Shown one piece after another: positions 8,377 to 47,860 of a stretch of DNA of 64,000 bases (its first letter is position 1; every line of letters starts with the position of its first letter). The position numbers and the translations under genes were made by a program. The notes under the pieces are model-generated. The model was not told the DNA's origin and searched no databases. It worked only from the letters and a program-made list of their open reading frames with translations. This DNA is from an uncultured bacterium (lineage in GTDB: Bacteria > UBA8248 > CAZNSX01). The stretch lies in NCBI GenBank assembly GCA_964575845.1, contig CAZNSX010000007.1, positions 80,772-144,771 on the forward strand, in the 5' to 3' direction.

Positions 8377-8388
8377 TTGGTTCTTCCT

Positions 8389-9471
8389 CTATCCCCTTCC
8401 CGACCTGACCCTTCGAAGGGCCTCTATGAAACGCTCGTTTTCCTTAGGGAGGCCCACCGTCACCCGAACGTGCCGGGGCAGGCCATAGCCCCCCAAGGGC
8501 CTTATGATGACGCCCTCCCGGAGGAGCTCTCTATAACAGTCAGCCCCATCACCCACCTCCACCAGAAGGAAATTAGCTTCAGAAGACACGTATGGCACTC
8601 CCAGCCGCTCTAGCTCCCGATAGAGATAGTCCCTCCCCCGGGAGTTCACTTCCACGCTCTTTCTCACGTGCCCTTCATCAGAAAGTGCCGCCCGAGCGGC
8701 AGCCAGGGCGAGGGAGTTTACGTTGAAGGGCTCCCTCACCCGGTTAAGACAGTCCACGAGCTCCGGGTTTCCCACCCCGTAGCCCACCCTCAGCCCCGCA
8801 AGGCCATAAGCTTTGGAGAAGGTCCGAAGAGCCAGGAGATTGGGGTAATCCCGCACCCAGGCTGCAGCGTTGGGGTAGTCGGCACGGGCGACATAGTGAC
8901 AGTAAGCTTCATCGACCACCACGATGACGCTCTTGGGGAGACTTTCGAGCAGCTCCCTCAGGGGGCCCCCTCCCACCACCGTGCCCGTGGGATTATTGGG
9001 GTTGGCCACGAAGAGGAGCTTGGTGCGGGGGCTTACCCTCTCCCTCATGGCCTTGAGGTCGTGGGTATAGTCCTTGAGGGGGACCAGAACCCGGCGGGCA
9101 TCGACGAGCTGGGCCACGATCTGAAAGACGATGAAGGCACTTTCGGAGATGATGGCCTCATCGCCCGGCTCAAGGAAAGCGTGGGCTATGATTTCCAGAA
9201 CCTCGTTCGTGCCGTTTCCCAGGATGAAATGCCCTTGGCTCAAACCATGGAATTCGGCGAGAGCGCCCCTGAGATGGTAGCCGCTGCCATCGGGATAGCG
9301 GTTCACTTCGAGGAAGGCATCCTGCAGGGCCTCAAGCGCCTTGGGGGAGGGGCCCAGAGGATTCTCATTTGAAGCGAGCTTTACGGCCGAGGCTATCCCA
9401 AGCTCCCGCTCCAGCTCATCCACTGGTTTTCCGGGCTCATAGAAGATTATATCCCGCACCCTCTTTGCCAC
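8389..9471 (-). CDS. hisC: histidinol-phosphate / aromatic aminotransferase (class II PLP enzyme)
   Basis: LASNENPLGPSP, NPNNPTG and FSKAYGLAGLRVGY motifs. The GTG at 9471 lies immediately after the pheA stop at 9473. Confidence 0.85.
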   Translation of the reverse strand: MAKRVRDIIFYEPGKPVDELERELGIASAVKLASNENPLGPSPKALEALQDAFLEVNRYPDGSGYHLRGALAEFHGLSQGHFILGNGTNEVLEIIAHAFLEPGDEAIISESAFIVFQIVAQLVDARRVLVPLKDYTHDLKAMRERVSPRTKLLFVANPNNPTGTVVGGGPLRELLESLPKSVIVVVDEAYCHYVARADYPNAAAWVRDYPNLLALRTFSKAYGLAGLRVGYGVGNPELVDCLNRVREPFNVNSLALAAARAALSDEGHVRKSVEVNSRGRDYLYRELERLGVPYVSSEANFLLVEVGDGADCYRELLREGVIIRPLGGYGLPRHVRVTVGLPKENERFIEALRRVRSGRG

Positions 9472-15197: not shown

Positions 15198-16097
15198 TCA
15201 CCCCTCCTCTTCAGCCTTTAGCTGATAGCCGCAGAAGGGACAGAAATCCCCCTCTGCGGGCAGGGGCCTCTGGCAGCGACCGCAGTAGGTCTGAATGTGT
15301 GCGGGGAGGTACTCTATCCTTTCGCCGCAGGCCGTGCAGAAGCTTCCACCCTCAGGGGTCAGGCGGCCACAGTGGGGGCAGCGCACGAGAAGCCGCAGAG
15401 TTCCCTCCCGGAACGGGGAGATGCGCTGATACTCCTTTACTCTTCGCCAGGTCATCCTGCCCAGAAGGAGCATCAGCGGGATAACGGCCAGCACCAGTGG
15501 TGATCGGGTAAAGAGAAAATAATCATAGAGCCCGTGAAGGAACATGGCTCCGAGAAGCCCCCAGAGGACGCTCCGCCTGGCCCTTCCCGCCCGCAGGGCG
15601 ACCATCCCTACGGGGAATCCCCAGAGACATGAGAAAAAAAGATGGCCCAGGGTGGAAAATACGGCCCTTCCAACCATAACCCCTGCGCCTAGCTCAAGGA
15701 CATAGAAGACATTCTCCAGGGAGGCGAAGCCAAGGGCGGAGGCCGATGCATATACTAGGCCGTCCATGGGCTCATTAAACTGACGGCTGCGAAAGACTGT
15801 GAGGCGGACCGCAAGAAATTTAAAGATTTCCTCAACCGGGCCAACCACAAGGAAGCAGATGAAAAACAAACCGAGAAGACCGCCGGGCAGTGCCCTGGCG
15901 TCCTCCCTCATGTATCGGCCCAGGTCGCCGAGCAGGAGGTTCTCCACGACCCCGGCGGGGATCACGGCACCCGCCCCCAGAGCAAAAACACCCAGGACCA
16001 TGCGCCAGGGCTCCCGCTCGTACTTATCCAGGCGCCGGATCAGAACGAGGTAGACTATCCCCGGCGCAAATCCCAGGAACGCAATGAGAATGGTCAT
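15198..16097 (-). CDS. prsW: PrsW-family intramembrane metalloprotease with two C-terminal zinc ribbons
   Basis: A multi-transmembrane protein with EEIFKFLAV and FLHGLYDYF (PrsW E-E-x3-K and H-x3-D motifs). The C-terminus has CPHCG..x..CTACG and CGRCQ..x..CPFCG. Confidence 0.7.
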   Translation of the reverse strand: MTILIAFLGFAPGIVYLVLIRRLDKYEREPWRMVLGVFALGAGAVIPAGVVENLLLGDLGRYMREDARALPGGLLGLFFICFLVVGPVEEIFKFLAVRLTVFRSRQFNEPMDGLVYASASALGFASLENVFYVLELGAGVMVGRAVFSTLGHLFFSCLWGFPVGMVALRAGRARRSVLWGLLGAMFLHGLYDYFLFTRSPLVLAVIPLMLLLGRMTWRRVKEYQRISPFREGTLRLLVRCPHCGRLTPEGGSFCTACGERIEYLPAHIQTYCGRCQRPLPAEGDFCPFCGYQLKAEEEG

Positions 16098-16128
16098 GGA
16101 TGGAATTCAGCGGAGCCCACGGGGCGAG

Positions 16129-16761
16129 TCACTCCCGGACGACCACTGTGTCCACGATCTTATCATGCAGGCCCTGCTTTCGCTCGGTCCAGATGACCAT
16201 GAGAAAGCCTATGTAGAAGATGAGAGCGGAGAGCCCATAAGCAAAGTACCGACCCATGGCCCGGCCATAGCCCACCCGGCTCCCGTCAGAGCGCACCACC
16301 CTGAGGCGGCATATACGCTTTCCCGGCGTCCATCCGTAGCGGCCGATAAAAAGGGTAAAGTAGAGGATGGAAACGACAAAGCCAAGGAGTGTGCTCATTG
16401 CCCTTAATCCTTCAGGGGCATCAGGGGGGATGGAAAGGGCGAGGAGGAACCCACAGAGAAACGCGAAGAGGGATAAGAAGATAATATCCAGGATATAAGC
16501 CCGCGCGCGAATCCAGAAGCCCGCATAGTGCAGGCGTGGGAGCCTGAGCTCAAAGCCCCGCTCATCATGCTCTGGCTCTGCCATCTTTAGGCCTGCTCCA
16601 CAGGTGGGACATATGGCTGAATCCACCGGGTGGGCGGCGCCGCAATTTGGACAGGAAGGGAGGGTTTGCTCGCTCGGGAGTTCCTCCCCGCAGCCCATGC
16701 AGAAGTTGCTCCCAGGCGGGTTGACCCGACCGCAATTCTTACACCTGACCTCTGACATCAT
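16129..16761 (-). CDS. RDD-family membrane protein with an N-terminal double zinc ribbon
   Basis: Start taken at MMSEVRCKNCG...CMGCG...CPNCG...CPTCG. This is followed by an RDD-like transmembrane domain (YAGFWIRARAYILD, GWTPGKRICRLRVV, QGLHDKIVDTVVV). Confidence 0.7.
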   Translation of the reverse strand: MMSEVRCKNCGRVNPPGSNFCMGCGEELPSEQTLPSCPNCGAAHPVDSAICPTCGAGLKMAEPEHDERGFELRLPRLHYAGFWIRARAYILDIIFLSLFAFLCGFLLALSIPPDAPEGLRAMSTLLGFVVSILYFTLFIGRYGWTPGKRICRLRVVRSDGSRVGYGRAMGRYFAYGLSALIFYIGFLMVIWTERKQGLHDKIVDTVVVRE

Positions 16762-16775
16762 CGGGTCGAAGTCCC

Positions 16776-17510
16776 TCAATAACAGACCCTCACGAGAAAT
16801 AGGCCGCGTGCGGGAGCCGTGGGGCCGGCCCTCCGCCGGTCCCTGGAGGAGAATAGCTCGGCCATTTGCTTGGGAGATAGCTTTCCCCTCCCCACAAGAA
16901 CTAGAGTCCCAACCATCGTGCGGACCATATATCTGAGGAAACCCTCGGCCGTGACCCAGAAGGTGAGGAACTCTCCCCACCTCTCGATGCGAAACTCCCG
17001 CACGGTGCGCACTGTTGAGAGAACCCCTCTCCCTGAGCCAGAGAAGGCGGCGAAATCGTGAGAGCCCACGAAATAGGAAGCCGCCTCCCCCATGGCCTCA
17101 AGCTCCAGTGATGTCCTTAGATGCCAGCAGTAGCGCCTCCAGAGGGCTGAAGGGAAGGGTCTATTGAGGATGAGGTACTTATAGGTCTTCTCCTTGACGG
17201 AGTACTGGGGATGGAAGGAAGGAAGGGCTTCTTCCGCCTCCAGAACAGCGATGTCCTTGGGCAGAAGAGCATTCAGAGCAGAGGCAATCTTACCAGCGGA
17301 AAGGGCCAGCTTTGTCTCGAAACTCGCCACCTGACCCAGGGCGTGCACCCCGGCGTCGGTGCGTCCTGCCGCCTTGACCCTCACCTCCTCTCCGGATAGC
17401 TTCTTGATTGCCTCTTCCAGCACTCCCTGGATTGTGGGTACGCCGGGCTGGAGCTGCCAGCCGTGGTAGTCACCGCCATCGTACTCAAGGGTGAGGCGGA
17501 TAATCCGCAC
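16776..17510 (-). CDS. truA: tRNA pseudouridine(38-40) synthase
   Basis: YDG..Y.GWQ.Q and AGRTDAGVHA motifs. Confidence 0.9.
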   Translation of the reverse strand: MRIIRLTLEYDGGDYHGWQLQPGVPTIQGVLEEAIKKLSGEEVRVKAAGRTDAGVHALGQVASFETKLALSAGKIASALNALLPKDIAVLEAEEALPSFHPQYSVKEKTYKYLILNRPFPSALWRRYCWHLRTSLELEAMGEAASYFVGSHDFAAFSGSGRGVLSTVRTVREFRIERWGEFLTFWVTAEGFLRYMVRTMVGTLVLVGRGKLSPKQMAELFSSRDRRRAGPTAPARGLFLVRVCY

Positions 17511-23599: not shown

Positions 23600-24589
23600 C
23601 TATTTGAAGACCAGCTTGTATGCCTCTTCCTTGGTGAAGCTGTGCTCCTTCTCACCAGTATCGTCAAAGACGGAGAGGCCAAAAAAGTAGCTCTTGGAGT
23701 TGTCGAACTGGACGTCATCGGTGTTCCCCGTGCGGAGCTTCCTCCTGAGCTCCAGAGTCCAACGGCCCCTTGCGTGGCGCCCGCCGGCATCGATATCGCC
23801 GCGGCTTCCCACCGGCCGCTCCAGAACCTCGCGGGGTACCACCGCACCCTTCTTCAGCTTAGTTCCGGACTCTAAGGGAACGGCGTCCTTCTTCATGAGC
23901 ACGGGGCCCCACTTCCCGCCCTTAGGGACGAGCTTTGGGGCCTTTTTCTCCTTATCCCAGTTTCCCGAGTAGCTTCCTGCGGCCTTCTTGTCGCCCTTCC
24001 TTCCGGTCTTCTCATCTCCCTCTTCGGCGACCTCGTGCTGCAGGTACTGGTCGTCCGCATAGCCCGCGGGGTTTGACCTCTGGGCCTTCCAGTGCCACAC
24101 ATCCCCCAGCTGGTCAGCGGCGTCAGTTTTCATGAAGAAGATTTCCTTATCGCCCTTCTTCTCCTTGTGGCAGACGGCGTCGCAGCCCTTTGCCGCGAAA
24201 TCCTTGATGTTGCCGTTTATGTCCCAGAGCAGGCCGAGGCGGTCCTCGTTTCCCTTGCGCTTTTCCCAGCTCGCTCCCGTCCACATGTAGACCCGGTTCT
24301 GGCTCAGGGTCTTGTCCGGCCAGCGGAAGAGAAAGTAGACGTATTCCTCATCATAGAGGGCCTTCATGGTGACCGTGATGTCCCCTATCTTCCCCTCCTT
24401 GACGGGAATGCGCGTGGCCCGGACCTTGTTCCAGGCCTTATCCACTTTGCCGTCAATTACAGGGCCCTTCTTGACCTTAACTGCCGTGACGGTCTTCTCG
24501 GCGAAGGCATCGAGAGTACCCCCCAGGATTGCGAGAGCCCCCGCCATGGCTAGAGCCACCAAGACCTTTATCGTGCCAGCATACCGCAT
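23600..24589 (-). CDS. secreted EB_dh-like (ethylbenzene-dehydrogenase gamma / DOMON-like) putative haem-binding protein
   Basis: A signal peptide followed by VIDGKVDKAWNKV...YFLFRWPD...WHWKA. From memory this resembles the haem-b gamma subunits of periplasmic type II DMSO-reductase-family enzymes. Confidence 0.55.
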   Translation of the reverse strand: MRYAGTIKVLVALAMAGALAILGGTLDAFAEKTVTAVKVKKGPVIDGKVDKAWNKVRATRIPVKEGKIGDITVTMKALYDEEYVYFLFRWPDKTLSQNRVYMWTGASWEKRKGNEDRLGLLWDINGNIKDFAAKGCDAVCHKEKKGDKEIFFMKTDAADQLGDVWHWKAQRSNPAGYADDQYLQHEVAEEGDEKTGRKGDKKAAGSYSGNWDKEKKAPKLVPKGGKWGPVLMKKDAVPLESGTKLKKGAVVPREVLERPVGSRGDIDAGGRHARGRWTLELRRKLRTGNTDDVQFDNSKSYFFGLSVFDDTGEKEHSFTKEEAYKLVFK

Positions 24590-24685
24590 AGAATGTCCCT
24601 CCTTTCAGTTGAGAGCTTCCTCTCTTCCGGGGCCGCTTCTCGGCCCCTCGGGCATCGCCCAGCTAAGGCCCCTATCGCGGGGCCC

Positions 24686-25909
24686 TCACTCCTTTGCCCC
24701 TGACGGCCGATAGCGCCTCTGCAGAAGCTTCACATACTCCAGGATATGGGCCAGCTCATCCTCCTTGAGCCTCGGCCAGAGGACCCCCTTCTCCCAGGTC
24801 TTCTCTTCCATCTCGGCGGCGTGGTTCCACATCTCGGTGACTATGTCGAGGGAAGATTCCCACTCCTGGACAAGAGCCAGGTTGGGGCCAACCTTATCCT
24901 TCGTCCTCCCTTTGCCCTTAACGGGATGGCATTCGCCGCAACGCTTTTCCTGAAAGAGCCGCTCTCCCTCCGTGGGGTCGCCCGGGGGGTCGGCGTACTG
25001 GATGAAGTAGAGGTAGGTGATTATGTCAGAGAGTTCCTGAGGCTCGAGCCTGGGCTGCTCGATCTCAAGCCTCTCCATGGTCCGCCACATGGCACCGCCA
25101 TGATTCCAGAGGATTCCGGCAATGGTGGAGACGCTTCGCCTTAACGCACGCGTTCCCAGGTCAGGGCCCACATTACCGCCCCGCCCGTTCACGGCGTGGC
25201 ATCGCGAGCAACCCTTCTCCTCGAAGAGCCGCCTGCCCTCCAGCGCGTTTCCCGGTGAGAGATAGACCCGCCTCCTGACGTCCTCAAAGGTGCTCTTTGC
25301 CCTTATGTATGCCACAAGGTCCAGGATTTCCTGCCCCCGGAAGAGTGGCCGCTTCACTCCCGCCCGCCTCATGGCTTCTTCCATCTCCTTTCCACGGTTC
25401 CACATGGCGGCCGTGATGAATACGGGTGAGATGAATGGCCGGTACTTATCCAGGGTGGGACCCAGAGATCCTCCCTTACCTCCCACAGAATGGCAGCCCC
25501 CGCAGCCCATCTCTCCGAAGAGCCGCTCCCCCGCCTCGGGATTTCCCTTTCGGTCAAAGTAGTTGAGGTAGTAGAGAAAGGAGACCAACCTCCTCATCTC
25601 CTCCCGCTGAAAGCGGGGCCTGGGAACGCCGAGGCGCCGGAACTCCTTCTGCATTTTGGGCGCGTGGTACCACATCACGCCTGCCATGCCCAGGAAGCTG
25701 TAATCTAGTTGGAGCTTTCCCAGGTCGGGTCCGCTCCTGCCGCCCTCCCCCTGAATGGCGTGGCAGCGCAGGCAGCCCTTTACCACGAAGAGCCGGCTTC
25801 CCTCGCTCGGGTTCTCCGGAAGGAGCTCTGCCAGGGAAGGGGAGGCCCCCGCAACCATCGCCAAGAGAAGCGCGACCCGGAGCAGCTTCACCTTCCAGGA
25901 AGCTTTCAT
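24686..25909 (-). CDS. periplasmic cytochrome c with four tandem class-I monohaem domains
   Basis: Starts MKASWKVKLL (signal peptide). Four CxxCH motifs (CLRCH, CGGCH, CSRCH, CGECH) each sit in an approximately 95-aa repeat of the form G.RLF..KGC..CH...G.GG..GP.L...W.H...M. This is the real C-terminal part of the 898-aa track ORF. It has an ATGA overlap with the upstream gene. Confidence 0.8.
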   Translation of the reverse strand: MKASWKVKLLRVALLLAMVAGASPSLAELLPENPSEGSRLFVVKGCLRCHAIQGEGGRSGPDLGKLQLDYSFLGMAGVMWYHAPKMQKEFRRLGVPRPRFQREEMRRLVSFLYYLNYFDRKGNPEAGERLFGEMGCGGCHSVGGKGGSLGPTLDKYRPFISPVFITAAMWNRGKEMEEAMRRAGVKRPLFRGQEILDLVAYIRAKSTFEDVRRRVYLSPGNALEGRRLFEEKGCSRCHAVNGRGGNVGPDLGTRALRRSVSTIAGILWNHGGAMWRTMERLEIEQPRLEPQELSDIITYLYFIQYADPPGDPTEGERLFQEKRCGECHPVKGKGRTKDKVGPNLALVQEWESSLDIVTEMWNHAAEMEEKTWEKGVLWPRLKEDELAHILEYVKLLQRRYRPSGAKE

Positions 25910-26157
25910 TTTCCCTCCCTCCCGGCTCGCATCCCCCAGAAGACATAGTTGACCACGCCCAGCAGGAGAAGGAAGACCGGGACCGCCACGATGGATATTC
26001 CTATGGAAGCCGAAGGCACATCCCTCAACTCTATCGAGAGCCGAATCAGGCTCACGATCCAGCCGACGATGCCCAGAATCAAGACAAAGAAGAGGACCAG
26101 GACGGCCAGCTGAATCGCCCGCACGGCCCTGGGGCTCGGCTCTTTCCCTGAAGCCAT
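25906..26157 (-). CDS. small two-transmembrane protein in the ActD-like position
   Basis: An 83-aa protein with two hydrophobic helices, tightly packed between the NrfD gene and the cytochrome gene. Confidence 0.5.
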   Translation of the reverse strand: MASGKEPSPRAVRAIQLAVLVLFFVLILGIVGWIVSLIRLSIELRDVPSASIGISIVAVPVFLLLLGVVNYVFWGMRAGREGK

Positions 26158-26172
26158 AGGGGCTCTCCCTTC

Positions 26173-27516
26173 TCAAGCGCTCCCGGGGGCGAGGGGAGGC
26201 TCGGGCATGTATCTCCGGACCCTCTCCTCCACTTCCCTGACGCCCAGTTCCCTTCCCTCCTGAACCTCCCAGATGGAGACAATGGGGAAGAACTTGGTGA
26301 AGAGGAGGAAAAGCAGGACAAAGAGGGCGAAGGACCCGACCAGAATCCCCCATTCCACCAGGCTGGGGATATAAATCCCATGGGGCAGCTCCAGGCTGGG
26401 GGTTGCAAGGGTGGGCACGATGATTATGAAGCGCTCGAGCCACATGCCCAGGATGACGCTCAGGGAGGCTATGAGGGTCCCCTTTATGGTTCGAAACCTC
26501 CTTATGCCCATGAGGGTCATGGGTACGGCGAAGTTGGCCACCACCATAGTCCAGAAATAGGGGGCATGGGGACCCGTGAACTTGGCCCAGAAGACCTTCA
26601 TCTCCTCGGGCTCGCCGCCGTAGTAGCCCGTGAGGTACTCGGCAAAGGTGAAATAAAACCAGAGGAAGGACATGACGAGGAGGAGGATACCCAGGTAGTT
26701 GAAGTGGATGGGCTTGAGATAAGACTCTAAGTGGTAGGCCTTCCTGAAGGCCAGCATGACGATGATCAGTGCCGCGATGCCTGAGTAAATGGCCCCGGCG
26801 ACAAAATAGGGGCCGAAGATCGTGCTGTGCCAGCCGGGCTGAAGGGTCATGGAGAAAACAAAAGAGACCACCGTGTGCACGGATACGGCCACGGGGATTA
26901 CCACCACGGCCATGATGGCTATGGCCACGTTCAGAACCCTCTGCTGGCGGGCGGTACCCTGCCAGCCCAGGGAAAGCACCTGATAGAGCCACCGGTAGCG
27001 GCTGGTCCCGTCGCGCAGGATGGCTATGTCGGGGATCAAGGGTATGTAGAGGTATATGGTGCTGGCCATGAGATAGGCGGAGATGCTGGTCACATCCCAG
27101 AGCAGGGGCGACTGATAGCGCCCGTACCATAGAATGTTGAGCAGTCGGTCGGGACGGCCCAGGTCTACTATGATGTTGGCCGCGCCTATGAAGAGGACCA
27201 TCACCGTTATGACCTCGGCCATTCGGGTTATGGGCCTGCGCCACTCGGCCTTTGCCATGCGGAGGATGGCCGAGATGAGGGTTCCCGCATGGCTTATGCC
27301 GATGAAGAAGACGAAGTTGGTGATGTAGAAGCCCCAGGAGACGGGCTGATTGAGGCCCGTGACCCCCAGGCCCCCGAACCACTGGACCACATAGGAGGCC
27401 AGGCCCCAGGCGACGAGGAGCAGGAGAAATCCCAGAAAAAACCAGAACCTCCAGCCCGTCGAAAGGATCGGCCCGAGGAGGAGATGATCCTGAAAGGCCT
27501 TTTCAGAGGAGTTCAT
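26173..27516 (-). CDS. NrfD/PsrC/ActC-type polytopic quinone-interacting membrane subunit
   Basis: A 447-aa protein with about 10 transmembrane helices and GLGVTGLNQPVSWGFYITNFVFFIGISHAGTLISAILR...WRRPITRMAE. It overlaps the FeS gene by 14 nt. Confidence 0.85.
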   Translation of the reverse strand: MNSSEKAFQDHLLLGPILSTGWRFWFFLGFLLLLVAWGLASYVVQWFGGLGVTGLNQPVSWGFYITNFVFFIGISHAGTLISAILRMAKAEWRRPITRMAEVITVMVLFIGAANIIVDLGRPDRLLNILWYGRYQSPLLWDVTSISAYLMASTIYLYIPLIPDIAILRDGTSRYRWLYQVLSLGWQGTARQQRVLNVAIAIMAVVVIPVAVSVHTVVSFVFSMTLQPGWHSTIFGPYFVAGAIYSGIAALIIVMLAFRKAYHLESYLKPIHFNYLGILLLVMSFLWFYFTFAEYLTGYYGGEPEEMKVFWAKFTGPHAPYFWTMVVANFAVPMTLMGIRRFRTIKGTLIASLSVILGMWLERFIIIVPTLATPSLELPHGIYIPSLVEWGILVGSFALFVLLFLLFTKFFPIVSIWEVQEGRELGVREVEERVRRYMPEPPLAPGSA

Positions 27517-28201
27517 CCTTCTCCCCTTCTATCAGGTAGACCACCTTGGGGCGGGTGCCCAGCTCCTCCAGCAACCGGAAGGCCCGGGAGCTCTTGTGGA
27601 GGCGAGAGACCGCGCTATCAGGGTCCTCCAAGTCGCCGAAGGTTATAGCTCCCGCCGGGCAGGTCTGGGCACACGCCGGGATGAAATCCCCTTCCTCTAG
27701 CTCTCTCCCCTCGGCCCTGACGCGGTCCCTTGCCTTCTGGAGGCGGTGGACGCAGAAGGTGCACTTCTCCACCACTCCTTTGGGCCTCAGGGCTACATCG
27801 GGGTTTCGGTGAGTGCGCAGGTCCTCTCGATTGGTATAGAGATGCCAGTTGAAATACTTGGCCGTGTAAGGACAGGCGGCCATGCAGAACCTGCACCCTA
27901 TGCAGCGGGCGTAGTTCTGGGCCACGATGCCCTCGGGGTCCCGGTAGGTGGCGTGCACCGGGCAGACTTTGGTGCAGGGAGGCTCATCGCAGTGGAGGCA
28001 GGGCCTGGGGATATAGCGGGCGTGAACCCTGGGATAGGGGCCGGCAACCTCTGTCACCATGTCCATCCAGCTAAGGATCCTTCCCCTGGCCGCTTCGCCG
28101 GGTTCCACATAGGGGACATTGTTCTCAGACTTGCAGGCGAGGACGCAGGCCTGGCAGGCGGTGCATCGGTCAAGGTCGATAGCCATTCCCCAGAGGGGCA
28201 T
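27503..28201 (-). CDS. 4Fe-4S ferredoxin-type subunit (PsrB/NrfC/ActB2-like)
   Basis: Several CxxCxxCxxxC(P) clusters: CTACQACVLAC, CLHCDEPPCTKVCP, CIGCRFCMAACP, CTFC...CAQTCP. Confidence 0.85.
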   Translation of the reverse strand: MPLWGMAIDLDRCTACQACVLACKSENNVPYVEPGEAARGRILSWMDMVTEVAGPYPRVHARYIPRPCLHCDEPPCTKVCPVHATYRDPEGIVAQNYARCIGCRFCMAACPYTAKYFNWHLYTNREDLRTHRNPDVALRPKGVVEKCTFCVHRLQKARDRVRAEGRELEEGDFIPACAQTCPAGAITFGDLEDPDSAVSRLHKSSRAFRLLEELGTRPKVVYLIEGEKDELL

Positions 28202-28214
28202 GCCCCGGTCCTCC

Positions 28215-30698
28215 TTATGCTTTCCTCACCTTGACCCGAGTTCCTGTCAGCACCCCGAGACCCCTCAGGGTATCCTCTTCGGGGATGATGATGGAGCTGG
28301 GGTTTGCCCCCGTCTTCCCGGCCCATTCGCTCAGCGCCTTGTGCCCCTGGCCAAAGGGAATATTGACCACTCCGGGCATGGCCCCCGCGTAAAGCCTGGC
28401 CCTCACCTTTATCTTCCCCTTGGAGGATTCCACCCAGACCAGGTCTCCATCCTTTATCCCCAGCCTCCTTGCCGTGGCCGGGTTCAGCTCCACCCAGTTC
28501 CCCCAGCGCATTCGCAAGTGGACGCCCAGACTCTCCTGAAGCTCGGGCAGGAGGGCCGTCCTCCCTCCCATCTGGCTCATGAGCTTATAGGTATTGAGCA
28601 CCAGAAGAGAATCACTCTCCGCGGACTCCCCCTCGGAGGGCTGATAGTGCGGGAGGAAGAGCTTATCACCACGGGCGGCCAACTTCTGCTCCTTAAGGAT
28701 TCGCTCCAGGGCTTCCTGGGGGGAGAGCTTCTCCCTCAGCGCCACCTCTTCCGCCGCCCCATCGAGGAGGCGCTTCAGGCCCAGGGAGTAGAACTCATAC
28801 CGCCCGCTCTCGGTCTTGAGCAGATGCTTCACGCCGCCGTAAGAATCCTCCGGGTCCCACCACGCCCCTCTCTTTCGGAGGGCTTCCCAGAACTCATCAT
28901 AGTCTTCGAACTCCTTCGCTCGGTAGCCCTGGCCAGCCAGGATTCGTCTGAAGGCTTCATCCGCTGGCTCTGAGACCACATATCCCCGCTCCGCCTCAAA
29001 GAGGCCCTGGCCGCGCTCATAGAGGAGGTCCGCATAGCTCTCCCATTCAAAGGCCCCAGAAAGAGGCTCTCCCACGGCACGGGCGAGTTCGAGGAGAAGG
29101 TCTCCTGTGGAGCGGGTGTTGTGGAGGGGCTTAACGGCCGGCCGCCCCAGGCTGAAGGCCGTGAAGCCTGAGAGGTGGGCCATGCTGTCATCCTGCCAGC
29201 GCTCCAGATAGGTGGAGTCGGGAAGGACGAGGTCGGCTTCAAGTGCGCTCTCATCCATGAAGGGGGAGAAGCTCACCACCAGAGGCACCCGCGCAAGAGC
29301 CCGCTTGAGCTCCTCTCCGCGCGGGTGAGAGAAAAGCGGGTTCGTAAAATAGAAGAAGAGCACCTCCAGCCCATAGGGCTCGCCCTTGAGAAGGGCCCGG
29401 GGCAGAGCCTCCACCGCATGGTCTGCCAGGAAATACTTCCCCTTCCCGGCCCCGTCTATCCGGGGCATGGAGAGCCCCCTCCTCGCAACCTCATCCAGCT
29501 CCGGCTCCTCCCAGGGAGCCAGGGGCAACTCCCCCTGGATGAGGATCGTCCCCGGCTTTCCAAGGTTGCCGGTCAGGGCGTTCAGGCTGTGAATGGCGAG
29601 ACGGGTGTATATGTCGTTCGGGTGAAAGGCGGGGCCCCGCTCGCCGAGGGCCAGAGCGCTCTTGTGCTCAGAGAACGCCCGGGCCATGGCGATGATGTCA
29701 CGTATGGGAACCCCTGTTATCTCGGAGACCCTGGGAAGGGTATATTCTTGGAGGACTAGGCTCTTATAGCCCATGTGGCGGCGCCCGGCCTCGTCAGGCC
29801 AGTCCTCAAACCCAAAGGTGTGCTCCCTCACGAATTCCTTATCAAAGCGCCCCTCGCTCACGATCACATGGGCCAGGCCAAGGGCAAGGGCGCAGTCGGT
29901 CCCGGGCCTTATGGGAACCCAACGGTCAGCTTTGGCCCCTGTGACCGAGAGGCGGGTCTCCACCTGGACCAGCTTTCCCCGCCGACCGGGTCGGCCCTGT
30001 CGGAGGTGTCCGTAAGTGGAAAGCTGGTATACGGGAGAGATCCAGGACTCCAGCAGGTTGCAGCCGAAGGAGAGGATGAAATCGCACTCTCTCAGGTCAT
30101 AGCTAAGGGGGAGCCGAATTCCCTGGGTGAGAAAGTGCGTCTTCGTCACCTTCTCCACTTCAAGGCAGCGGTTTCGGATGTAGTTGGGAGAGCCATAAAC
30201 GCGGAAGAACCTCTGAATAAGGCCGTCCACAGAGCCCCGGTATTGCCCCCCCAGGAGGGCCACCTTATGGGGCTCACCCTTCTCCCGCAGCTCCCCCAGG
30301 CGACCGGCCAAAGTCCTTAATGCCTCCTCCCAGCTTATGGGCTGCCAGCGGCCCTCGCCCCGTTTTCCGCTGCGGCGAAGAGGCCCGCGGATACGCTCGG
30401 GATGGTAGAGGAACTGAAGGCCTGCATGGCCCTTGGGGCAGAGGCGGCCGCGGTTTACGGGATGGTTGGGGTTTCCCTCGATCTTTACAGCGCGCCCATC
30501 CACCACCCTCACAAGAATCCCACACCCCCCCGGGCAGACCTGGCAAATGGTGGGCACCAGCTCTTCCTCGTAGTCCGGCCAGGGGTCTCTCTCAATGGAG
30601 GAGACCTCGCTAAGAGCCCCTCCCCCCTTGGCCAGGGCCGCGGCACCGGCGGCCATGCCTCCGAGCAACTTAAGGAATCCCCTTCGGTCGAGAAGCAT
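28215..30698 (-). CDS. TAT-exported molybdopterin (bis-PGD) oxidoreductase large subunit, Psr/Phs/ActB1/QrcB-like
   Basis: A twin-arginine signal (DRRGFLKLLGG) and an intact N-terminal FS0 motif (CQVCPGGCGILV...x...RLCPKG). It is 827 aa. Confidence 0.85.
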   Translation of the reverse strand: MLLDRRGFLKLLGGMAAGAAALAKGGGALSEVSSIERDPWPDYEEELVPTICQVCPGGCGILVRVVDGRAVKIEGNPNHPVNRGRLCPKGHAGLQFLYHPERIRGPLRRSGKRGEGRWQPISWEEALRTLAGRLGELREKGEPHKVALLGGQYRGSVDGLIQRFFRVYGSPNYIRNRCLEVEKVTKTHFLTQGIRLPLSYDLRECDFILSFGCNLLESWISPVYQLSTYGHLRQGRPGRRGKLVQVETRLSVTGAKADRWVPIRPGTDCALALGLAHVIVSEGRFDKEFVREHTFGFEDWPDEAGRRHMGYKSLVLQEYTLPRVSEITGVPIRDIIAMARAFSEHKSALALGERGPAFHPNDIYTRLAIHSLNALTGNLGKPGTILIQGELPLAPWEEPELDEVARRGLSMPRIDGAGKGKYFLADHAVEALPRALLKGEPYGLEVLFFYFTNPLFSHPRGEELKRALARVPLVVSFSPFMDESALEADLVLPDSTYLERWQDDSMAHLSGFTAFSLGRPAVKPLHNTRSTGDLLLELARAVGEPLSGAFEWESYADLLYERGQGLFEAERGYVVSEPADEAFRRILAGQGYRAKEFEDYDEFWEALRKRGAWWDPEDSYGGVKHLLKTESGRYEFYSLGLKRLLDGAAEEVALREKLSPQEALERILKEQKLAARGDKLFLPHYQPSEGESAESDSLLVLNTYKLMSQMGGRTALLPELQESLGVHLRMRWGNWVELNPATARRLGIKDGDLVWVESSKGKIKVRARLYAGAMPGVVNIPFGQGHKALSEWAGKTGANPSSIIIPEEDTLRGLGVLTGTRVKVRKA

Positions 30699-30732
30699 CT
30701 CTTATAATCTCTCAGCTAAAGAAGCCAATTTC

Positions 30733-31251
30733 TCAGTGGTGGCAGGCATTACAGTCAACGCTCACCCTCTTGAGCTTATGACAGTCGATGCAGGCCTCCA
30801 TGCTTACGGGCACAGTAGCTTCTGACGGAGGAGCAGAGAGATGGGCAAAATCTCCGTGGCACTCCCCGCATTCAACCTTTCCGAAGACCACGTGACGCTT
30901 GTGGGAGAAGTTAACGGTGTCGGGAACCTGGTAGAGCCGCCGCCAGGGGATCTCAAGCCGCCGGTCGGCATACTCCCTAAGCCTCTTTTCCTCTTCGGTC
31001 TTGACCTCACCGCCCGAATGGCAGGAGGTGCAGATGCTGAGGGAAGGCCTTCCTGCAACCGGCCGCTTTTCATAATATTTGTGGCAGGTCCGGCAGGTTA
31101 TCTTCTCCTTCCCTTCCTCCACCTTGGCTTCCATGTGCTTCTTGTGGTTGAACCTTAAGGGCTGAGTTATACCTCCGCCCCTGAAGATTAAGCCCGCCGC
31201 CGCGATGAGCACACCCACCAAGGCCAAGAAGACTATGCCCTTCGTGCTCAC
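30733..31251 (-). CDS. membrane-anchored pentahaem cytochrome c (ActA/QrcA-like)
   Basis: An N-terminal transmembrane helix and five CxxCH motifs (CRTCH, CTSCH, CGECH, CIDCH, CNACH) within 172 aa. Confidence 0.8.
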   Translation of the reverse strand: MSTKGIVFLALVGVLIAAAGLIFRGGGITQPLRFNHKKHMEAKVEEGKEKITCRTCHKYYEKRPVAGRPSLSICTSCHSGGEVKTEEEKRLREYADRRLEIPWRRLYQVPDTVNFSHKRHVVFGKVECGECHGDFAHLSAPPSEATVPVSMEACIDCHKLKRVSVDCNACHH

Positions 31252-31557
31252 GTCCCCTCCTCTGCGGCACGGGCTTCTATGAGATTATCCAGTTCCACAA
31301 GGTCGATGGGCTTCAGCAGGGTGGAAGCTGCCAGCCTCCCTTTCTTGTAGCGCCTGGGTGAAGTGATTGGACTCCCTGCACCTCTCGACGAAGTATTCAC
31401 ATTCTCTTAGATGGTGGCCCTTACCGCGTGAGGAGCGCCCAGGGGGCACTGCGCAGGCATCAACCGGCGTCGCGGTGACGCACTCCTCCACGAGCCGCTT
31501 CTCCTGAGCGAGGCTCGTATTGGCCCTCGCCGCATAGACAAACATCCGCTTGCCCAT
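31248..31557 (-). pseudogene. possible decayed gene remnant. Its C-terminal tail resembles the end of a CheY-like receiver domain.
   Basis: One frame ends ...STLLKPIDLVELDNLIEARAAEEGT*, with its TGA overlapping the GTG start of the pentahaem cytochrome (GTGA). The upstream coding-looking sequence (MGKRMFVYAARANTSLAQEKRLVEEC...) is in another frame. No single frame gives a complete domain. Confidence 0.25.
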
Positions 31558-32118
31558 GCCGGTGGCATATGCCGCCAGGTTGGCCCGGAAGATGTCGGAA
31601 GCTCAGAAAATTGCTCTGTAGGAATAATTGCCGAGGTTCGGCTGGGCAGTGCTTTTGGCCGCTTAACCGACCTCGGATCCACCCCCCGGTGAACCTATCG
31701 CCGAGCCCATCTTGTGCTCAACTCAGCAAAGTATAGCAAGAAATGACGAACTCGGTCAATAGTTCGATCAGTAATAAGATTTCGGTGCTTCCTTAGAGCT
31801 CAAACTATGTGATTGGGCGGCGCCCTCCGCCTCAAGCAAGAGCCCGAGGCACTCTTATGGAAGCTGCTCCAGCTCCCGCAATCCCCCGGGTCGGTAGCAG
31901 AAAGGCTCGTATGGGGCAACGCAGCCAACTGGACCGTGGATAATCTATTCAGGCCGCGTGCCCCGCCCCCGCGCGTCTCTCCCTTGCCGCTCCTCGCACC
32001 TCCGAGAAGAGCGTCTCATTGAATATTTATTGGAGCTAGAGCTTATGGCTTCGGCCGGATGTTAAGATAGGCATACGAATCGGGTCTCGCGAGAGATGTT
32101 TTCACGGAGGGGAAATAG

Positions 32119-33099: not shown

Positions 33100-36000
33100 T
33101 CAGACCCACGCGTGAAGGGAGCGCCGATCGCGGATGAGCTTTTCCTTTGAGAGGTCCTTGAGGGAGGCGTCTTGCAGTCTTTCCAGGATCCCCCTTATCT
33201 CATCATCCATCCCGCCGTCACCACATTTTTTTCTAGCCGATTCTTCCGCGCATATTCTGGCTTCCTCGTACTCACCCGTGGCGGCAAGAGCGCAGGCCAA
33301 AGATAGGTAGGCTTCCGACATCCTTGCCGGAGCCTGAATTTGCTCCCCAACCTCTAAGCTTCTTCGGAGCACTTTTACCGCCTCTCCATGTTCCCCCTTC
33401 TCCGTGAGCGCGCGGCCCAGGTTCTCAAGGGTCACGGCCACGCCTTCGGTGTGTTTGATCTCCTCTCTGAATTTCAGGCTCTCCTGGTAGCAATCAACCG
33501 CCTTATCGAGCTGGTTCAGGCAGTGATAAACATTGCCCAGGCTGTTTAGGGATGTGCCTGTCCCCAGGGCATCACCCACCTGACGCCGGATGTCCAGAGC
33601 CTTTTGATAATATTCGACCGCTTCCCCGTAGGACCCGCGCAGGCACGCAACCAAGCCCAGGTTGTAAAGTGACGAGGCCATGCCCGGGAGGTGTTCCAGC
33701 GCCTCCTCGCTCTCAAGACATTTTTCAAAATGCCCCGTTGCTTTCTCATAGTCCCCCTCCCTGACGAAGGAGGCCCCCAGCACGTTGTGGGCGCGCGTGA
33801 TGTCGGAGAGGCTCCCCAGTTCCTCGGCAAGGCGGAGGCTCTCGTAAGCCCAGCGCCTCGCCTCTTGACAATCGTGCTGGCGGAAGTGAATCCAGCCGAG
33901 CAGGCCCAAACACCTACTCATCTCGACGGAACTCTCCCCCCCGGGGAAGGCCTCCAGCACCTCCTTGGCTTCGAGAAGCTTGCGCAGGCCATCCTCGAAC
34001 TTTCCGCGCCTCTCATGGGCCAACCCGACCCTGGCTTTTGCCCGGGCCCACTCCAGGGGCCATTTTCTCCTGGCGGGGTCTTCTTCCTCAAGGAGGGCGA
34101 GCAATACCTCGTTTTCCCGGATGGACCTCTCATATTCGGCGGTGAAGAAATAGACGCTGCTCAAGCCCTCTCTGGCCTGTATAATGAATCCCGTTTTCTT
34201 GGCCTTTCCCTCAGGGCTAAGTTTCCCGAACGCCCCGATGGCCCGCCGGTAACACTCAGCAGCCTCTTCGTTTGCGTAAACCTCCTTGGCCTTATTCCCG
34301 GCCCTCCCCTGGAACTCGAGGGCGCTCTCCCAGGCCTCGCCGTAATAGTAGTGGTGGGCCAGGATGCCCCAGTTCTCCTCCAACCTCTCAGGATAAAGCT
34401 CCCCTATGGCGGAGGCGACGGCCCGGTGCAGTTCCCTTCGCCTCTTGAGCAGGAGGCCCCCGTAAGCAACCTCCTGGATGAAAGCATGCTTGAAACTGTA
34501 AATAGGTTCCGGGAAATGAGACTTCTCGTAAATGAACTCTGCACCCTCCAGTTCTTTCACATGCTGTTCGAGTTTTTCCTTCTCGACGCTCACCCTCTGG
34601 AGAAGGGGGAGGGAGAAGTCTCTGCCAAATACGGAGGCCTCCTGGAGGGTTCGCTTAACTTCACCCTCCAGATGGTCGATCCGGGCCGATATCACCTCCT
34701 GAATGGTGCCGGGCACCTCCATTCTCGTGAGCGCGTCCGCGCCCCGGTACGTGAGATCTTTGGCCACCGCCCCGCTCTCCACTAAAGATTTAGTTATCTC
34801 CTCTATGTAGAAGGGATTGCCCTCGGCTTTGGCCAGGATTAGCCTTCTGACCTCCTCAGATACCCTTTCCGTCTCCAGGATGTTCTCTATTATCTCGTTG
34901 CACTCTCCTTCGGAAAGCCGGTCCACTGCTATCTGGTTGAAATATGACTTGCCCGCGCACTCGCAAGCGTATCCGGGTCTGAAGGTTACGAGGACCATCA
35001 TGGAGCTTCCCGCTATGGAGTCGACCAAAAATTTGAGAAGCTCCTCAGATGTCTTATCAATCCAGTGTAGGTTTTCGAGGACCATCACAAGAGGTCGAAC
35101 CTGGCATTCCTTCAACACGACAGCCCTAATGGCCTCGAAGGTCCTCCGCCTTCTCTCGAGGGGCTCGAGGCTCCTCAAGAGTTCTGCCCCCTCCCCTTCC
35201 AAGCTCACCGAAAATAGGTTCAGAAGGAAAGGCGAAGCCCATCTCAGGTCCCCCCCTATCCCGTCAAGTTTTCTCTCGACCTTATGGCGGATGTTCTCCT
35301 CTCGGTCGCGCTCTTCGACCTGAAATTCTCTTTTTAACAGCTCTATCCAGGGCAGGTAAGCCACGGAGCTCCCGTAGGAGACGCAGCGGCCCTCGAGGTA
35401 TCCGGTGTCCTCACCCGTAAGGCTCTTTCTGAACTCGTAGAGCAGCCTTGATTTCCCGACTCCCGCCTCACCGACAAGGCATACCAACTGTCCGCGACCG
35501 CTCTTCACCTTTTCTTTGCAATCCCGCAGCGTGTCGAGCTCCCGCGCCCGGCCCACGAGTCTCGTGAGCCTTCGCTCCTCAGAGAGGTCGGCCCGGATGC
35601 TCTTGACCCCCGTGACCCTGTAAGCGGAAACCTTTTCCTCCCTTCCCTTCACCTCAAGTTCACCTACCGGCTCAAACTCGAAGTACTCTTTCACCTTTTG
35701 GTAACTATTCTCACTTACCAGGATGGTCCCCGGGGAGGCCAGGCTCTCCATGCGGGCGGCCAAGTTCGTGGTGTCGCCCACAGCGGTGTAGTCCATCCGG
35801 AGGTTATTGCCTATGCTCCCCACAACCACAGGGCCGGTGTTGAGTCCTATCCGGACCCCGAAAGCAATACCCCTCTCACACTTGAGCTCTTCCCCGTAAG
35901 CCCCTAACGCCTCCTGCATCGAGAGGGCCGCGTGGACCGCCCTCCTGGGCCCATCCTCGTGGGAGATGGGCGCACCGAAGAGGGCCATTATGCCGTCCCC

Positions 36001-36456
36001 CGTGAACTGGTTCACCGACCCCTCGTAGCGGTGCACCGAATCCATGAGGATTTCAAAGCACCTGTTCATCATTGAGTGAACCTCTTCGGGGTCGAGCCTC
36101 TCGGAGATGGAGGTAAATCCGCTGACATCAGCGAAGAGCACCGTGACTATCTTCCTCTCCCCTTCGATGGCGCTCTTGGAGGAGAGGATTTTTTCCGCAA
36201 GATGCCTGGGAGTGTAACTCTGGATCTTCTGGTTTAGGTCCTCGGCGGCATATCCGGGCGGCATCCGCTCTTCCGCAGACGGCGAGGGCTCGGTCAACTT
36301 TCGGCCGCAGCCCCCGCAGAAGGAGAAATCCGCGGGGTTTTCAAACCCGCAGGCCGGGCATAGATTCCCCAGCCGCGAGCCGCATCTCCCGCAGAAATTC
36401 ACCCCTGCGGGGTTTTCAAATCCACATTGGCGGCAAATCATTTTGCCGGTCCTCAT
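33100..36456 (-). CDS. multidomain signalling protein: double zinc ribbon, class III adenylate/guanylate cyclase, AAA/STAND ATPase, TPR repeats
   Basis: CRQCG..CGRCG..CPACG..CGGCG; then RKIVTVLFADVSGFTS...FTGDGIMALFGAP (cyclase core); then a P-loop, LVGEAGVGKSRL; then a long TPR-like helical C-terminus. Confidence 0.85.
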   Translation of the reverse strand: MRTGKMICRQCGFENPAGVNFCGRCGSRLGNLCPACGFENPADFSFCGGCGRKLTEPSPSAEERMPPGYAAEDLNQKIQSYTPRHLAEKILSSKSAIEGERKIVTVLFADVSGFTSISERLDPEEVHSMMNRCFEILMDSVHRYEGSVNQFTGDGIMALFGAPISHEDGPRRAVHAALSMQEALGAYGEELKCERGIAFGVRIGLNTGPVVVGSIGNNLRMDYTAVGDTTNLAARMESLASPGTILVSENSYQKVKEYFEFEPVGELEVKGREEKVSAYRVTGVKSIRADLSEERRLTRLVGRARELDTLRDCKEKVKSGRGQLVCLVGEAGVGKSRLLYEFRKSLTGEDTGYLEGRCVSYGSSVAYLPWIELLKREFQVEERDREENIRHKVERKLDGIGGDLRWASPFLLNLFSVSLEGEGAELLRSLEPLERRRRTFEAIRAVVLKECQVRPLVMVLENLHWIDKTSEELLKFLVDSIAGSSMMVLVTFRPGYACECAGKSYFNQIAVDRLSEGECNEIIENILETERVSEEVRRLILAKAEGNPFYIEEITKSLVESGAVAKDLTYRGADALTRMEVPGTIQEVISARIDHLEGEVKRTLQEASVFGRDFSLPLLQRVSVEKEKLEQHVKELEGAEFIYEKSHFPEPIYSFKHAFIQEVAYGGLLLKRRRELHRAVASAIGELYPERLEENWGILAHHYYYGEAWESALEFQGRAGNKAKEVYANEEAAECYRRAIGAFGKLSPEGKAKKTGFIIQAREGLSSVYFFTAEYERSIRENEVLLALLEEEDPARRKWPLEWARAKARVGLAHERRGKFEDGLRKLLEAKEVLEAFPGGESSVEMSRCLGLLGWIHFRQHDCQEARRWAYESLRLAEELGSLSDITRAHNVLGASFVREGDYEKATGHFEKCLESEEALEHLPGMASSLYNLGLVACLRGSYGEAVEYYQKALDIRRQVGDALGTGTSLNSLGNVYHCLNQLDKAVDCYQESLKFREEIKHTEGVAVTLENLGRALTEKGEHGEAVKVLRRSLEVGEQIQAPARMSEAYLSLACALAATGEYEEARICAEESARKKCGDGGMDDEIRGILERLQDASLKDLSKEKLIRDRRSLHAWV

Positions 36457-45893: not shown

Positions 45894-46151
45894 TTCGATT
45901 GGCCTCCCTGAAAAAGAGCGCCCCCTCCGAATAATATAAAAGGGGGCCTTTGTCAACGGGAGCGCCTTCAGCCGGGCGGGGCACGGCCGCGCCCCCGATA
46001 CCCGATTGGCGCGCAAGGGCGTTCCTGTTGAAAGCTACCCCCGGCGTTGCTATCATAGCTCAGACTTCAGGTTATTCTCCTCAGCCGCAGCCGCCCTTTG
46101 CCCCCTGGAGCGGCCGGCTCCCGGCCTCAAGGGGGCGGATGGAGGCTCAAG

Positions 46152-46391
46152 ATGAAGGTCGCATACATACTCGTCAGGGTCTCGCCCGGCCACATCGAGG
46201 AAGTGGCCTCGCACCTCACGTCCATAAAGCAGATAATGGAAGTCTATGCCATAAGCGGCGAGTACGACATCATCGCCAAGGCCCTCATGGAAAACTATGA
46301 CGAGATAATCGACATAGTCCCCCACGGCGTCCAGCGCGTAAAGGGGGTTGAAAGGACGAATACCTTATTTACTTTTAGTGCGTTTATGTAG
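46152..46391 (+). CDS. stand-alone Lrp/AsnC ligand-binding (RAM) domain protein
   Basis: MKVAYILVRV.PG....V...L..I..I.EVYAISGEYDII.K; 79 aa; GGAGG upstream. Confidence 0.6.
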   Translation: MKVAYILVRVSPGHIEEVASHLTSIKQIMEVYAISGEYDIIAKALMENYDEIIDIVPHGVQRVKGVERTNTLFTFSAFM

Positions 46392-47359: not shown

Positions 47360-47380
47360 ATACAACCCTCCACGAAATCC

Positions 47381-47712: not shown

Positions 47713-47739
47713 CTTCACTCCTCCTTTATCTATGTGTAT

Positions 47740-47811: not shown

Positions 47812-47826
47812 GACTATCATTTCAAA

Positions 47827-47860
47827 ATAATGCTGAGCAGCTTCCTCAGCCATCCCACCC
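47827..47860. repeat. module-B-only copy (b2)
   Basis: ataatGCTGAGcagcttcCTCAGCCATCCCACCC. Confidence 0.7.

Follow-up and report, generated by a model that had tools for sequence, protein, structure and literature searches.

An alternative complex III-like operon from an uncultured bacterium whose large subunit retains sequence hallmarks of a molybdenum site

A 64,000-nucleotide stretch of contig CAZNSX010000007.1 (positions 80,772 to 144,771), from an uncultured bacterium of the UBA8248 lineage and referred to here in its full length as the window, carries on its minus strand an operon of seven open reading frames (ORFs), designated G1 to G7 in the direction of transcription, between positions 23600 and 31251. 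Judged from sequence, the encoded complex is a mosaic, with a scaffold like that of alternative complex III (ACIII) and a cofactor complement like that of the polysulfide and arsenate reductases (Psr and Arr). Our preferred reading, which we consider to have an even chance of being right, is that the operon encodes a periplasm-facing, quinone-coupled complex of the ACIII/Qrc type in which the large subunit has not degenerated and would retain a functional molybdenum (or tungsten) bis-pyranopterin guanine dinucleotide site, Mo(W)-bisPGD.

Evidence for the ACIII-like chassis comes from G1, G3 and G4. G1 (30733–31251) is an ActA/QrcA-like anchored pentahaem cytochrome c of 172 amino acids, with a GTG start preceded by a GGAGG ribosome-binding site, one N-terminal transmembrane (TM) helix and five CxxCH motifs. 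Its best matches in the PDB are ActA chains (6btm_A at 1e-16, 8k9e_A and 6f0k_A at 1e-13; overall range 1e-16 to 1e-11). G3 (27503–28201) is a four-cluster iron–sulfur subunit of 232 amino acids with a Fer4_11 (4Fe–4S dicluster) domain in Pfam; the ActB2 domain of 6f0k_B is its best PDB match (1e-59), with PsrB and ArrB behind at ~1e-38. Its 16 cysteines are enough for four [4Fe–4S] clusters, and the [3Fe–4S] signature of ActB is not among its motifs. When the G2 N-terminus and G3 were concatenated and aligned to the solved ActB chains, all four ActB2 domains were seen to read RCxGT(R/K)YC, with Thr in place of the second Cys of the third cluster motif, which is the [3Fe–4S] signature, whereas the corresponding G3 motif, RCIGCRFCMAACP, retains the Cys. 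G4 (26173–27516; 447 amino acids, about ten TM helices) is an ActC-type quinone-interacting membrane subunit of the NrfD family (Pfam NrfD, 3e-36). Over residues 22–419 it matches the ActC chains 6f0k_C (4e-73), 6btm_C, 6lod_C and 8k9e_C, the range being 4e-73 to 7e-68; no match to PsrC (2vpw_C) is found in the PDB at E ≤ 0.01.

The large subunit, G2 (28215–30698; 827 amino acids), has different affinities. It is of the Mo-bisPGD type, carries the motif RRGFLK for export by the twin-arginine translocation (Tat) pathway and contains the Fe4S4 (PF04879, 1.7e-20), molybdopterin (PF00384, 3e-31) and dinucleotide-binding (PF01568, 2e-16) domains. Among PDB chains its strongest match is ArrA (6cz7), at 4e-87 and along its entire length; PsrA follows at 4e-67, the candidate ligand cysteines being aligned with each other by HMMER. 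ActB chains reach only 1e-10 to 1e-18 and over short stretches. The same picture emerges from structure prediction: an AlphaFold model of G2 (pLDDT 88.6, pTM 0.89) has ArrA as its best Foldseek match (TM-score 0.80), followed by PsrA and other genuine Mo/W enzymes, and ActB chains are absent from the top 50. The proposal made on reading the sequence alone, that an ACIII/Qrc scaffold is combined here with a Psr/Arr-like large subunit, therefore holds both for the chassis, with its ActA, ActB2 and ActC best matches, and for G2, by sequence and by fold.

NCBIfam places the subunits of this operon between families. G2 scores 316 bits with ArrA (cut-off 1600), 310 with QrcB (440) and 302 with PhsA (694), and reaches no equivalog cut-off; the remaining Qrc models fall short in the same way (QrcA 83 of 180 bits, QrcC 280 of 400, QrcD 44 of 570). 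Two candidate identities were rejected on these grounds: ArrA/ArxA for G2, which in addition to its low ArrA score reads GGQY where ArrA has RGRY, and bona fide Qrc, for which the cut-offs are missed by the window and by four other clades of relatives.

Two residues of G2, Cys178 and Asp268, are informative about its putative molybdenum site. In the HMMER alignment Cys178 falls opposite the ArrA and PsrA cysteine that, on the basis of published work, we regard as the Mo ligand. The residue is retained in 139 of 143 clade sequences, the exceptions being three with Asp and one with Asn. Three G2 homologues (P0030, P0038 and P0043) form a small subclade with Asp at the ligand position, in the motif NYIRL(L/N)D; as Asp is known to serve as the Mo ligand in some other families of enzymes, they may represent a switch of ligand and not a loss. 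Asp268 emerged from a screen of the 92 positions identical in window G2, ArrA and PsrA as the single sharp separator of groups. It belongs to the PGTD motif, which reads PGQD in ArrA and PGTD in PsrA and NapA, the Asp being common to all three. It is kept by all of the Arr/Psr-like sequences and by 13 of 13 tested members of clade A (the clade of the window, delimited below), and by 4% of the relatives without the ligand Cys, which have PGTE or PGTY instead. Across 137 nearest full-length representatives at 50% identity, ligand-loop Cys and Asp268 occur together in 15 and are both missing in 109, with Cys alone in eight and Asp alone in five (Fisher p = 1.4e-10, uncorrected for phylogeny). Conservation in the solved enzymes leads us to infer that Asp268 contacts the dinucleotide cofactor. 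Overall retention of core positions was also tried as a marker and set aside, since it separates the groups weakly (0.80 in clade A, 0.84 in Arr/Psr-like sequences and 0.72 in the Cys-less relatives).

The N-terminal FS0 motif tells a different story. It is intact in G2, as the sequence-only reading had recognised (C52-x2-C55-x3-C59-x27-C87, then Lys89), and its positions are 90–100% conserved in the clade. In the solved complexes the aligned ActB1 stretches lack Cys at the FS0 and ligand positions, in 8k9e_B at all five and in 6f0k_B, 6lod_B and 6btm_B wherever their shorter alignments to G2 reach; thus 'STLT-LGGYGTG...GTDLFAQ' of ActB1 stands opposite 'TICQVCPGGCG...RLCPKG' of the window. 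That reading had gone further and treated the intact motif as a sign of catalysis. This is not supported by the 137 representatives: the large majority keep FS0, yet the ligand-loop Cys is missing in 114, so FS0 alone is not diagnostic of catalysis and we dropped it as a marker.

Relatives of G2 are numerous. Database clusters comprise more than 120 at 47–57% identity and one at 92%, all from metagenomes or metagenome-assembled genomes (MAGs), and, with each species represented by one genome, at least 554 genomes were found to encode a G2 relative, including Rokuibacteriota, Methylomirabilota, Binatia, Tectomicrobia and Nitrospinota as well as Desulfobacterota, Acidobacteria, Chloroflexi, Planctomycetia and Verrucomicrobiia. 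In the set of 80 retrieved loci, members of the window's own clade come from Rokubacteria, Methylomirabilota, Binatia, Tectomicrobia, Nitrospinota and others. This clade, clade A, was defined by tblastn of the seven window proteins against 85 loci together with a table of motifs. Its members share the Mo-subunit motif NY(I/V/L)R-x-R-C, the iron–sulfur subunit motif CIGCRFCMAACP, G1 upstream (preceding the Mo-subunit gene in nearly all loci by tblastn), an ActC-like G4 (63–72% identity across the loci) and G5 plus G6 downstream, and G1–G6 are syntenic across many phyla. Other groups differ. A Syntrophaceae group lacks the ligand Cys, G5 and G6 and has an iron–sulfur motif of the 3Fe–4S type (CIGVRMC); a mixed group lacks the ligand Cys and G5 and keeps G6; and loci without G1 combine the classical HSSIC(A/E/S)DG motif with a distant NrfD, and are ordinary Psr/Arr-like three-gene enzymes. 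None of these other groups reaches the QrcB cut-off. In the single Nitrospiria locus seen, L054, the ligand Cys has been lost and the NrfD subunit is distant.

The conserved unit includes two genes downstream of G4. G5 (25906–26157) encodes a protein of 83 amino acids with two hydrophobic segments, predicted TM helices, and is located, at 44–68% identity, between its neighbours G4 and G6 in each of the 36 clade A loci (tblastn; the loci were chosen for carrying G5 and G6). It has no match, ActD included, in Pfam, NCBIfam or the PDB. The suggestion that the operon follows the order ActA-ActB1-ActB2-ActC-ActD is thus sound for G1–G4 and finds no support in sequence at G5. G6 (24686–25909; 407 amino acids), whose start, MKASWKV, is internal to a longer mechanically called ORF, stands in the place of ActE and belongs to the core of clade A. 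This periplasmic cytochrome c is built from four class I domains (four Cytochrom_C stretches in Pfam, 1e-33) and has a signal peptide but no lipobox; each of its four CxxCH motifs is followed by an (M/L)W motif, and no ActE match is found for it in the PDB. Naming G5 as ActD and G6 as ActE is without sequence support, and the operon has no second NrfD-like gene (ActF).

The last gene, G7 (23600–24589; 329 amino acids), encodes a secreted haem protein of the EB_dh fold. It matches Pfam EB_dh (PF09459) at 4e-39, with 135 bits against a cut-off of 33.3, so that of the family models named in the sequence-only reading PF09459 is matched above its cut-off and the QrcA–D models are not. A profile of the G7 family finds NxrC (7b04_C, 7e-11) and EbdC (0.03), with which it has a W-x-W-K motif in common. 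Among 120 homologues, C136-x3-C140-H141 is present in every one, His316 in 98% and Lys168 in 93%; in the EbdC structure the Lys ligand lies roughly at the position of His316. The invariant CX3CH and the conserved His316 suggest a covalent, His-ligated haem, and not the haem b that had been supposed, and G7 is probably not a plain haem-b protein. The closest homologue, at 83% identity, is in a Nitrospinota MAG, so the source of the window is probably a relative of that organism. G7 adjoins the cluster in only six of the 23 clade A loci whose sequence extends far enough downstream; in two others it is found at another place in the locus. This makes G1–G6 the conserved unit and the EB_dh protein an accessory. 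More distant homologues lie within Rieske/cytochrome b operons, as in a SAR202 locus (L086, 7374–9966: Rieske, cytochrome b, EB_dh) and in L087 (8448–12191: Rieske, EB_dh, cytochrome b, EB_dh), and the same module is found downstream of the cluster in L024 and L082. In the L086 and L087 operons EB_dh appears to replace a cytochrome c1-type subunit. The earlier statement that EB_dh proteins partner type II enzymes of the DMSO reductase family is therefore incomplete, since relatives of G7 also partner Rieske/cytochrome b complexes. Judged by these neighbours, G7 seems to serve quinol-oxidising complexes generally as a haem partner in the periplasm, which fits a role in electron exit or entry here. 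A literature search on PF09459/EB_dh with Rieske/cytochrome b found nothing relevant.

The surroundings of the cluster were surveyed by clustering the flanking ORFs of the 36 clade A loci. In nine of these, an MtrB/PioB porin (PF11854, 1.8e-101) and a decahaem MtrA-like cytochrome are found up to ~6 kb upstream (L019 at 950–3262, L029 at 5071–8414, and L037, L043, L045, L082, L018, L027 and L035), in MAGs labelled Rokuibacteriota, Binatia, Deltaproteobacteria or Syntrophobacteraceae, or unclassified. In several the pair is directly upstream on the same strand, and conduit and cluster may there form one long operon. Other recurrent neighbours are small class I cytochromes (11 loci), nine-haem anchored cytochromes, and Rieske plus cytochrome b downstream (6–8 loci). 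The complex thus sits in respiratory and extracellular-electron-transfer islands in about a quarter of cases. Genes for biosynthesis of the molybdenum cofactor (Moco) do not recur in three or more loci, MoaA-/MoeA-like genes being found upstream only in L002 and L003. These two (57% identity; L002, 1–5586) are the closest loci beyond the window's own species: genes for a LysR-type helix-turn-helix protein, a HisKA_3 kinase and a GerE-type response regulator precede the cluster, and further upstream lie the MoaA-/MoeA-like genes and an NrfA-like cytochrome c552/NrfD cluster.

How might such a complex work? By analogy with ACIII and Qrc, we infer that G4 would exchange electrons with the quinone pool and probably couple this to proton movement. 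The four [4Fe–4S] clusters of G3 would form the trunk of the wire, from which one route would lead through FS0 to the Mo active site of G2 and another through the pentahaem G1 to G6 and, where present, G7, from where electrons would enter the pool of periplasmic cytochromes and pass to its terminal partners. This would make the complex a three-way junction between quinone, c-type cytochromes and the Mo site. The substrate of the Mo site would be a small molecule in the periplasm; an oxyanion, or a compound of sulfur or of a metalloid, is plausible. That the Mo site is occupied and catalytic is, in our view, about as probable as that it is not.

Several observations count against a catalytic G2. 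Most of its nearest relatives are Cys-less, and the characterised relatives QrcB and ActB are cofactor-less (PMC6303296, PMC10100899), so the prior for this radiation leans towards the non-catalytic. Within G2 itself the ligand loop is two to three residues shorter than in ArrA and PsrA, and ETR is found where the family and true Mo enzymes have DPR. HMMER aligns LLRGRYS of ArrA with LLGGQYR of G2: what we take to be the arsenate-binding motif of ArrA, (R/K)GRY, reads GGQY, so that homology offers no substrate proposal. The operon includes neither a dedicated Tat/redox enzyme maturation protein (REMP) chaperone nor a Moco biosynthesis gene, and an Rfam search of the ~830-nt leader upstream of G1, the whole window and 13 related loci found no family, the Moco riboswitch included. 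Finally, our neighbour-joining tree describes clade structure only: ArrA and PsrA, as taken from the HMMER output, are its sole named outgroups, and the position of the clade with respect to true ActB1 or QrcB lies beyond its reach. Several of these points are what would be expected of a plain ACIII-like quinol:cytochrome c oxidoreductase, or of the same machine run backwards as a cytochrome c:quinone reductase for uphill electron flow, in which G2 would be a structural cap with FS0 and no Mo, and Cys178 and Asp268 would reflect structural retention or a lag behind functional loss. We regard this as a real but somewhat doubtful alternative. It is in keeping with the ActA-, ActB2- and ActC-like nature of G1, G3 and G4, with the loss of the ligand Cys from FS0-bearing relatives and the cofactor-less state of QrcB and ActB, and with an operon free of chaperone and Moco genes. 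In print the same architecture is annotated as ACIII-like (PMC9386147, PMC12342949). In Sideroxydans, moreover, Fe(II) strongly induces related FS0-bearing ACIII-like clusters, which have been given a role in reverse electron transport (PMC8788666); we count this induction in favour of our preferred reading as well. Such a machine is harder to reconcile with a ligand Cys present in 97% of a clade that spans many phyla, with Asp in three of the four exceptions, or with Asp268 in every clade member tested as against ~4% of the Cys-less relatives. Nor does it sit easily with the full four-domain ArrA-like fold that is predicted with high confidence, or with a G3 that lacks the [3Fe–4S] signature common to all solved ActB chains. 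Furthermore, canonical actABCDEFG is reported from all Binatota genomes (PMC8262859) and Binatia MAGs also carry the G1–G6 cluster, so the latter may, on this phylum-level comparison, be an addition to actABCDEFG and not the sole complex III there.

The conduit genes raise another possibility, namely that the complex is the inner-membrane module of an extracellular electron transfer system, akin in function to CymA, ImcH or CbcL, linking the quinone pool to an outer-membrane porin–cytochrome conduit through which Fe(II) or Mn(II) would be oxidised or metals reduced. Besides the porin and decahaem cytochrome near the cluster in nine of 36 clade A loci, this idea draws on the flagging of rokubacterial PioA/PioB homologues as candidate iron oxidisers (PMC10654088) and on a role in iron reduction proposed for the ACIII-like cluster of MBNT15 (PMC9386147). 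The conduit is, however, missing from about three quarters of clade A loci; no MtrA/MtrB-like gene is found within the 64-kb window, whose only other ORF with CxxCH motifs is a three-haem protein 19 kb away; and the conserved Mo-ligand Cys is left unexplained. We think this account improbable.

ACIII and Qrc are textbook cases of molybdoenzyme scaffolds turned into pure electron-transfer machines after cofactor loss. A widespread clade with an ACIII chassis and an apparently intact Mo site would depart from the rule, noted in PMC6303296, that the only partners of 10-helix NrfD subunits are non-standard 'catalytic' subunits; it would also give a view of the origin of ACIII and point to a candidate respiratory or lithotrophic activity in abundant uncultured phyla of soil and groundwater. 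Tentatively, and with less conviction than for the retained site itself, the clade could be seen as a living intermediate between catalytic Arr/Psr-type enzymes and cofactor-less ACIII/Qrc, performing an unrecognised periplasmic reaction wired to quinone and, through a chain of nine or ten haems, to the cytochrome c pool. If so, soils and aquifers could host a lithotrophic or respiratory process that has so far gone unaccounted for. At present the genes are annotated as 'ACIII', 'QrcB-like' or 'anaerobic selenocysteine-containing dehydrogenase', and the pairing of Cys178 with Asp268 offers a simple sequence test to separate potentially catalytic from degenerate members.

The ORFs confirm the seven minus-strand genes in the order and at the coordinates given by the sequence-only reading; their spacings (+34, +13, −14, +15, −4 and +96 nt from G1 to G7) fit its description, and its domain calls agree with Pfam. 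One flank of the operon encodes a methyltransferase, Memo, a radical SAM protein and UvrA, together with enzymes for the synthesis of aromatic amino acids; the other has a divergent DUF169 gene and encodes an adenylate cyclase/TPR protein. As these are unrelated housekeeping genes, the operon is self-contained. The leader upstream of G1 (31252–32118) is unusually long, at ~830 nt, and has one promoter-like site (31759–31730). This weak candidate (31730–31759, minus strand, ~480 nt upstream of G1) is sigma-70-like, matching 10 of 12 consensus positions with an extended −10 TG, and it comes from a promoter and terminator scan of the region in which the number of sites did not exceed the shuffled expectation.

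Elsewhere in the window, the region 46000–51500 has a low GC content (0.50–0.52 against ~0.60 elsewhere) and may be foreign or poorly characterised DNA; it includes two ORFs without a Pfam family, 47921–49264 (447 amino acids) and 50421–51323 (300 amino acids), the latter contained in a frame, 50424–51434, with three CxxCH motifs. Three proteins encoded at 15198–16980 and 33100–36456 combine double zinc-ribbon (DZR) domains with differing modules: a PrsW intramembrane protease, an RDD membrane protein and a 1118-residue adenylate cyclase/AAA/TPR protein. At 566–2074 (minus strand) a 502-residue ORF joins an isopentenyl pyrophosphate (IPP) transferase domain (MiaA-like) to a shikimate kinase domain, either an unusual fusion or a merged gene call.

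Comparison with known systems begins with ACIII as solved in 6F0K, 6BTM, 6LOD and 8K9E. Shared with it are the anchored pentahaem ActA-like subunit, the iron–sulfur module closest to ActB2, the 10-helix ActC-like subunit and the gene order, in which A-B1-B2-C precede first a small TM protein and then a cytochrome of the c type. The differences are that B1 and B2 are fused in ActB and are separate genes (G2 and G3) here; that G2 is ArrA/PsrA-like and keeps the FS0 motif, ligand Cys and PGTD Asp that solved ActB1 lacks; that ActB2 holds one [3Fe–4S] and three [4Fe–4S] clusters, whereas G3 has 16 Cys and no 3Fe–4S signature; and that the operon has no ActF, a four-domain G6 in place of monohaem ActE, and a G5 dissimilar to ActD.

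Closer counterparts are the 'ACIII-like' clusters in print, compared here by their published descriptions. Neutrophilic Fe(II) oxidisers carry actAB1B2CDEF, termed 'ACIII-like' or 'Mob', with split ActB1/B2 and an ActB1 bearing CX2CX3CX27C (PMC3770913, PMC4643136, PMC10654088); Nitrospirales have actAB1B2CDE without ActF or ActG (PMC12342949); and MBNT15 has ActABCD plus an ActE-like protein with four haems (PMC9386147). The split ActB, the identical FS0 spacing and, in some, the missing ActF are features of the window's clade too, and these clusters are, like it, biochemically uncharacterised; those of the Fe(II) oxidisers differ in keeping ActF and a monohaem ActE. It follows that the split large subunit with its FS0 spacing is not new (PMC4643136), and that of the last two genes, both held by the sequence-only reading to lie outside any known set, this is only half right: G6 is a core gene of its clade and a four-haem ActE-like subunit is already published for MBNT15. 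The passages of this literature that we read are silent on the Mo-ligand residue and the PGTD Asp, and equally on an all-[4Fe–4S] iron–sulfur subunit or a CX3CH EB_dh partner. The architecture is thus known at the level of annotation, whilst the cofactor-competent reading and the accessory EB_dh partner have no precedent in those passages.

With Qrc (QrcABCD) the operon shares separate genes for an anchored multihaem cytochrome and for Mo-enzyme-like, four-cluster iron–sulfur and 10-helix NrfD subunits, and for G1–G3 the highest-scoring NCBIfam models include those of Qrc. All four equivalog cut-offs are nevertheless missed, and Qrc includes neither a class I cytochrome nor an EB_dh partner. 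QrcB is described as cofactor-less in PMC6303296, a state against which Cys178 and Asp268, as sequence features, argue in the case of G2. In that same paper Duarte et al. observe that NrfD subunits with ten helices have as partners 'catalytic' subunits that are non-standard and devoid of cofactor. On the enzyme side stand ArrAB(C)/ArxAB(C) and PsrABC/PhsABC, whose ArrA and PsrA are the closest matches to the large subunit both in sequence and in structure. The large subunit has in common with them the Tat signal, FS0, the Cys ligand position, the CPKG lysine, the PGTD motif and all four domains; the superfamily phylogeny of PMC10100899 places ActB next to ArxA/ArrA. Setting G2 apart are its scores (316 of 1600 bits for ArrA, 302 of 694 for PhsA), GGQY in place of RGRY and the shorter ligand loop, and setting the operon apart are a membrane subunit of the ActC type instead of the PsrC type with eight TM helices, and the extra haem subunits. 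G7, lastly, resembles the EB_dh (PF09459) haem subunits in its family match, its NxrC and EbdC profile matches and its W-x-W-K motif; it differs from them in the invariant CX3CH of its family, which suggests a covalent haem, and in its partners, which are an ACIII-like complex or Rieske/cytochrome b operons instead of a type II enzyme.

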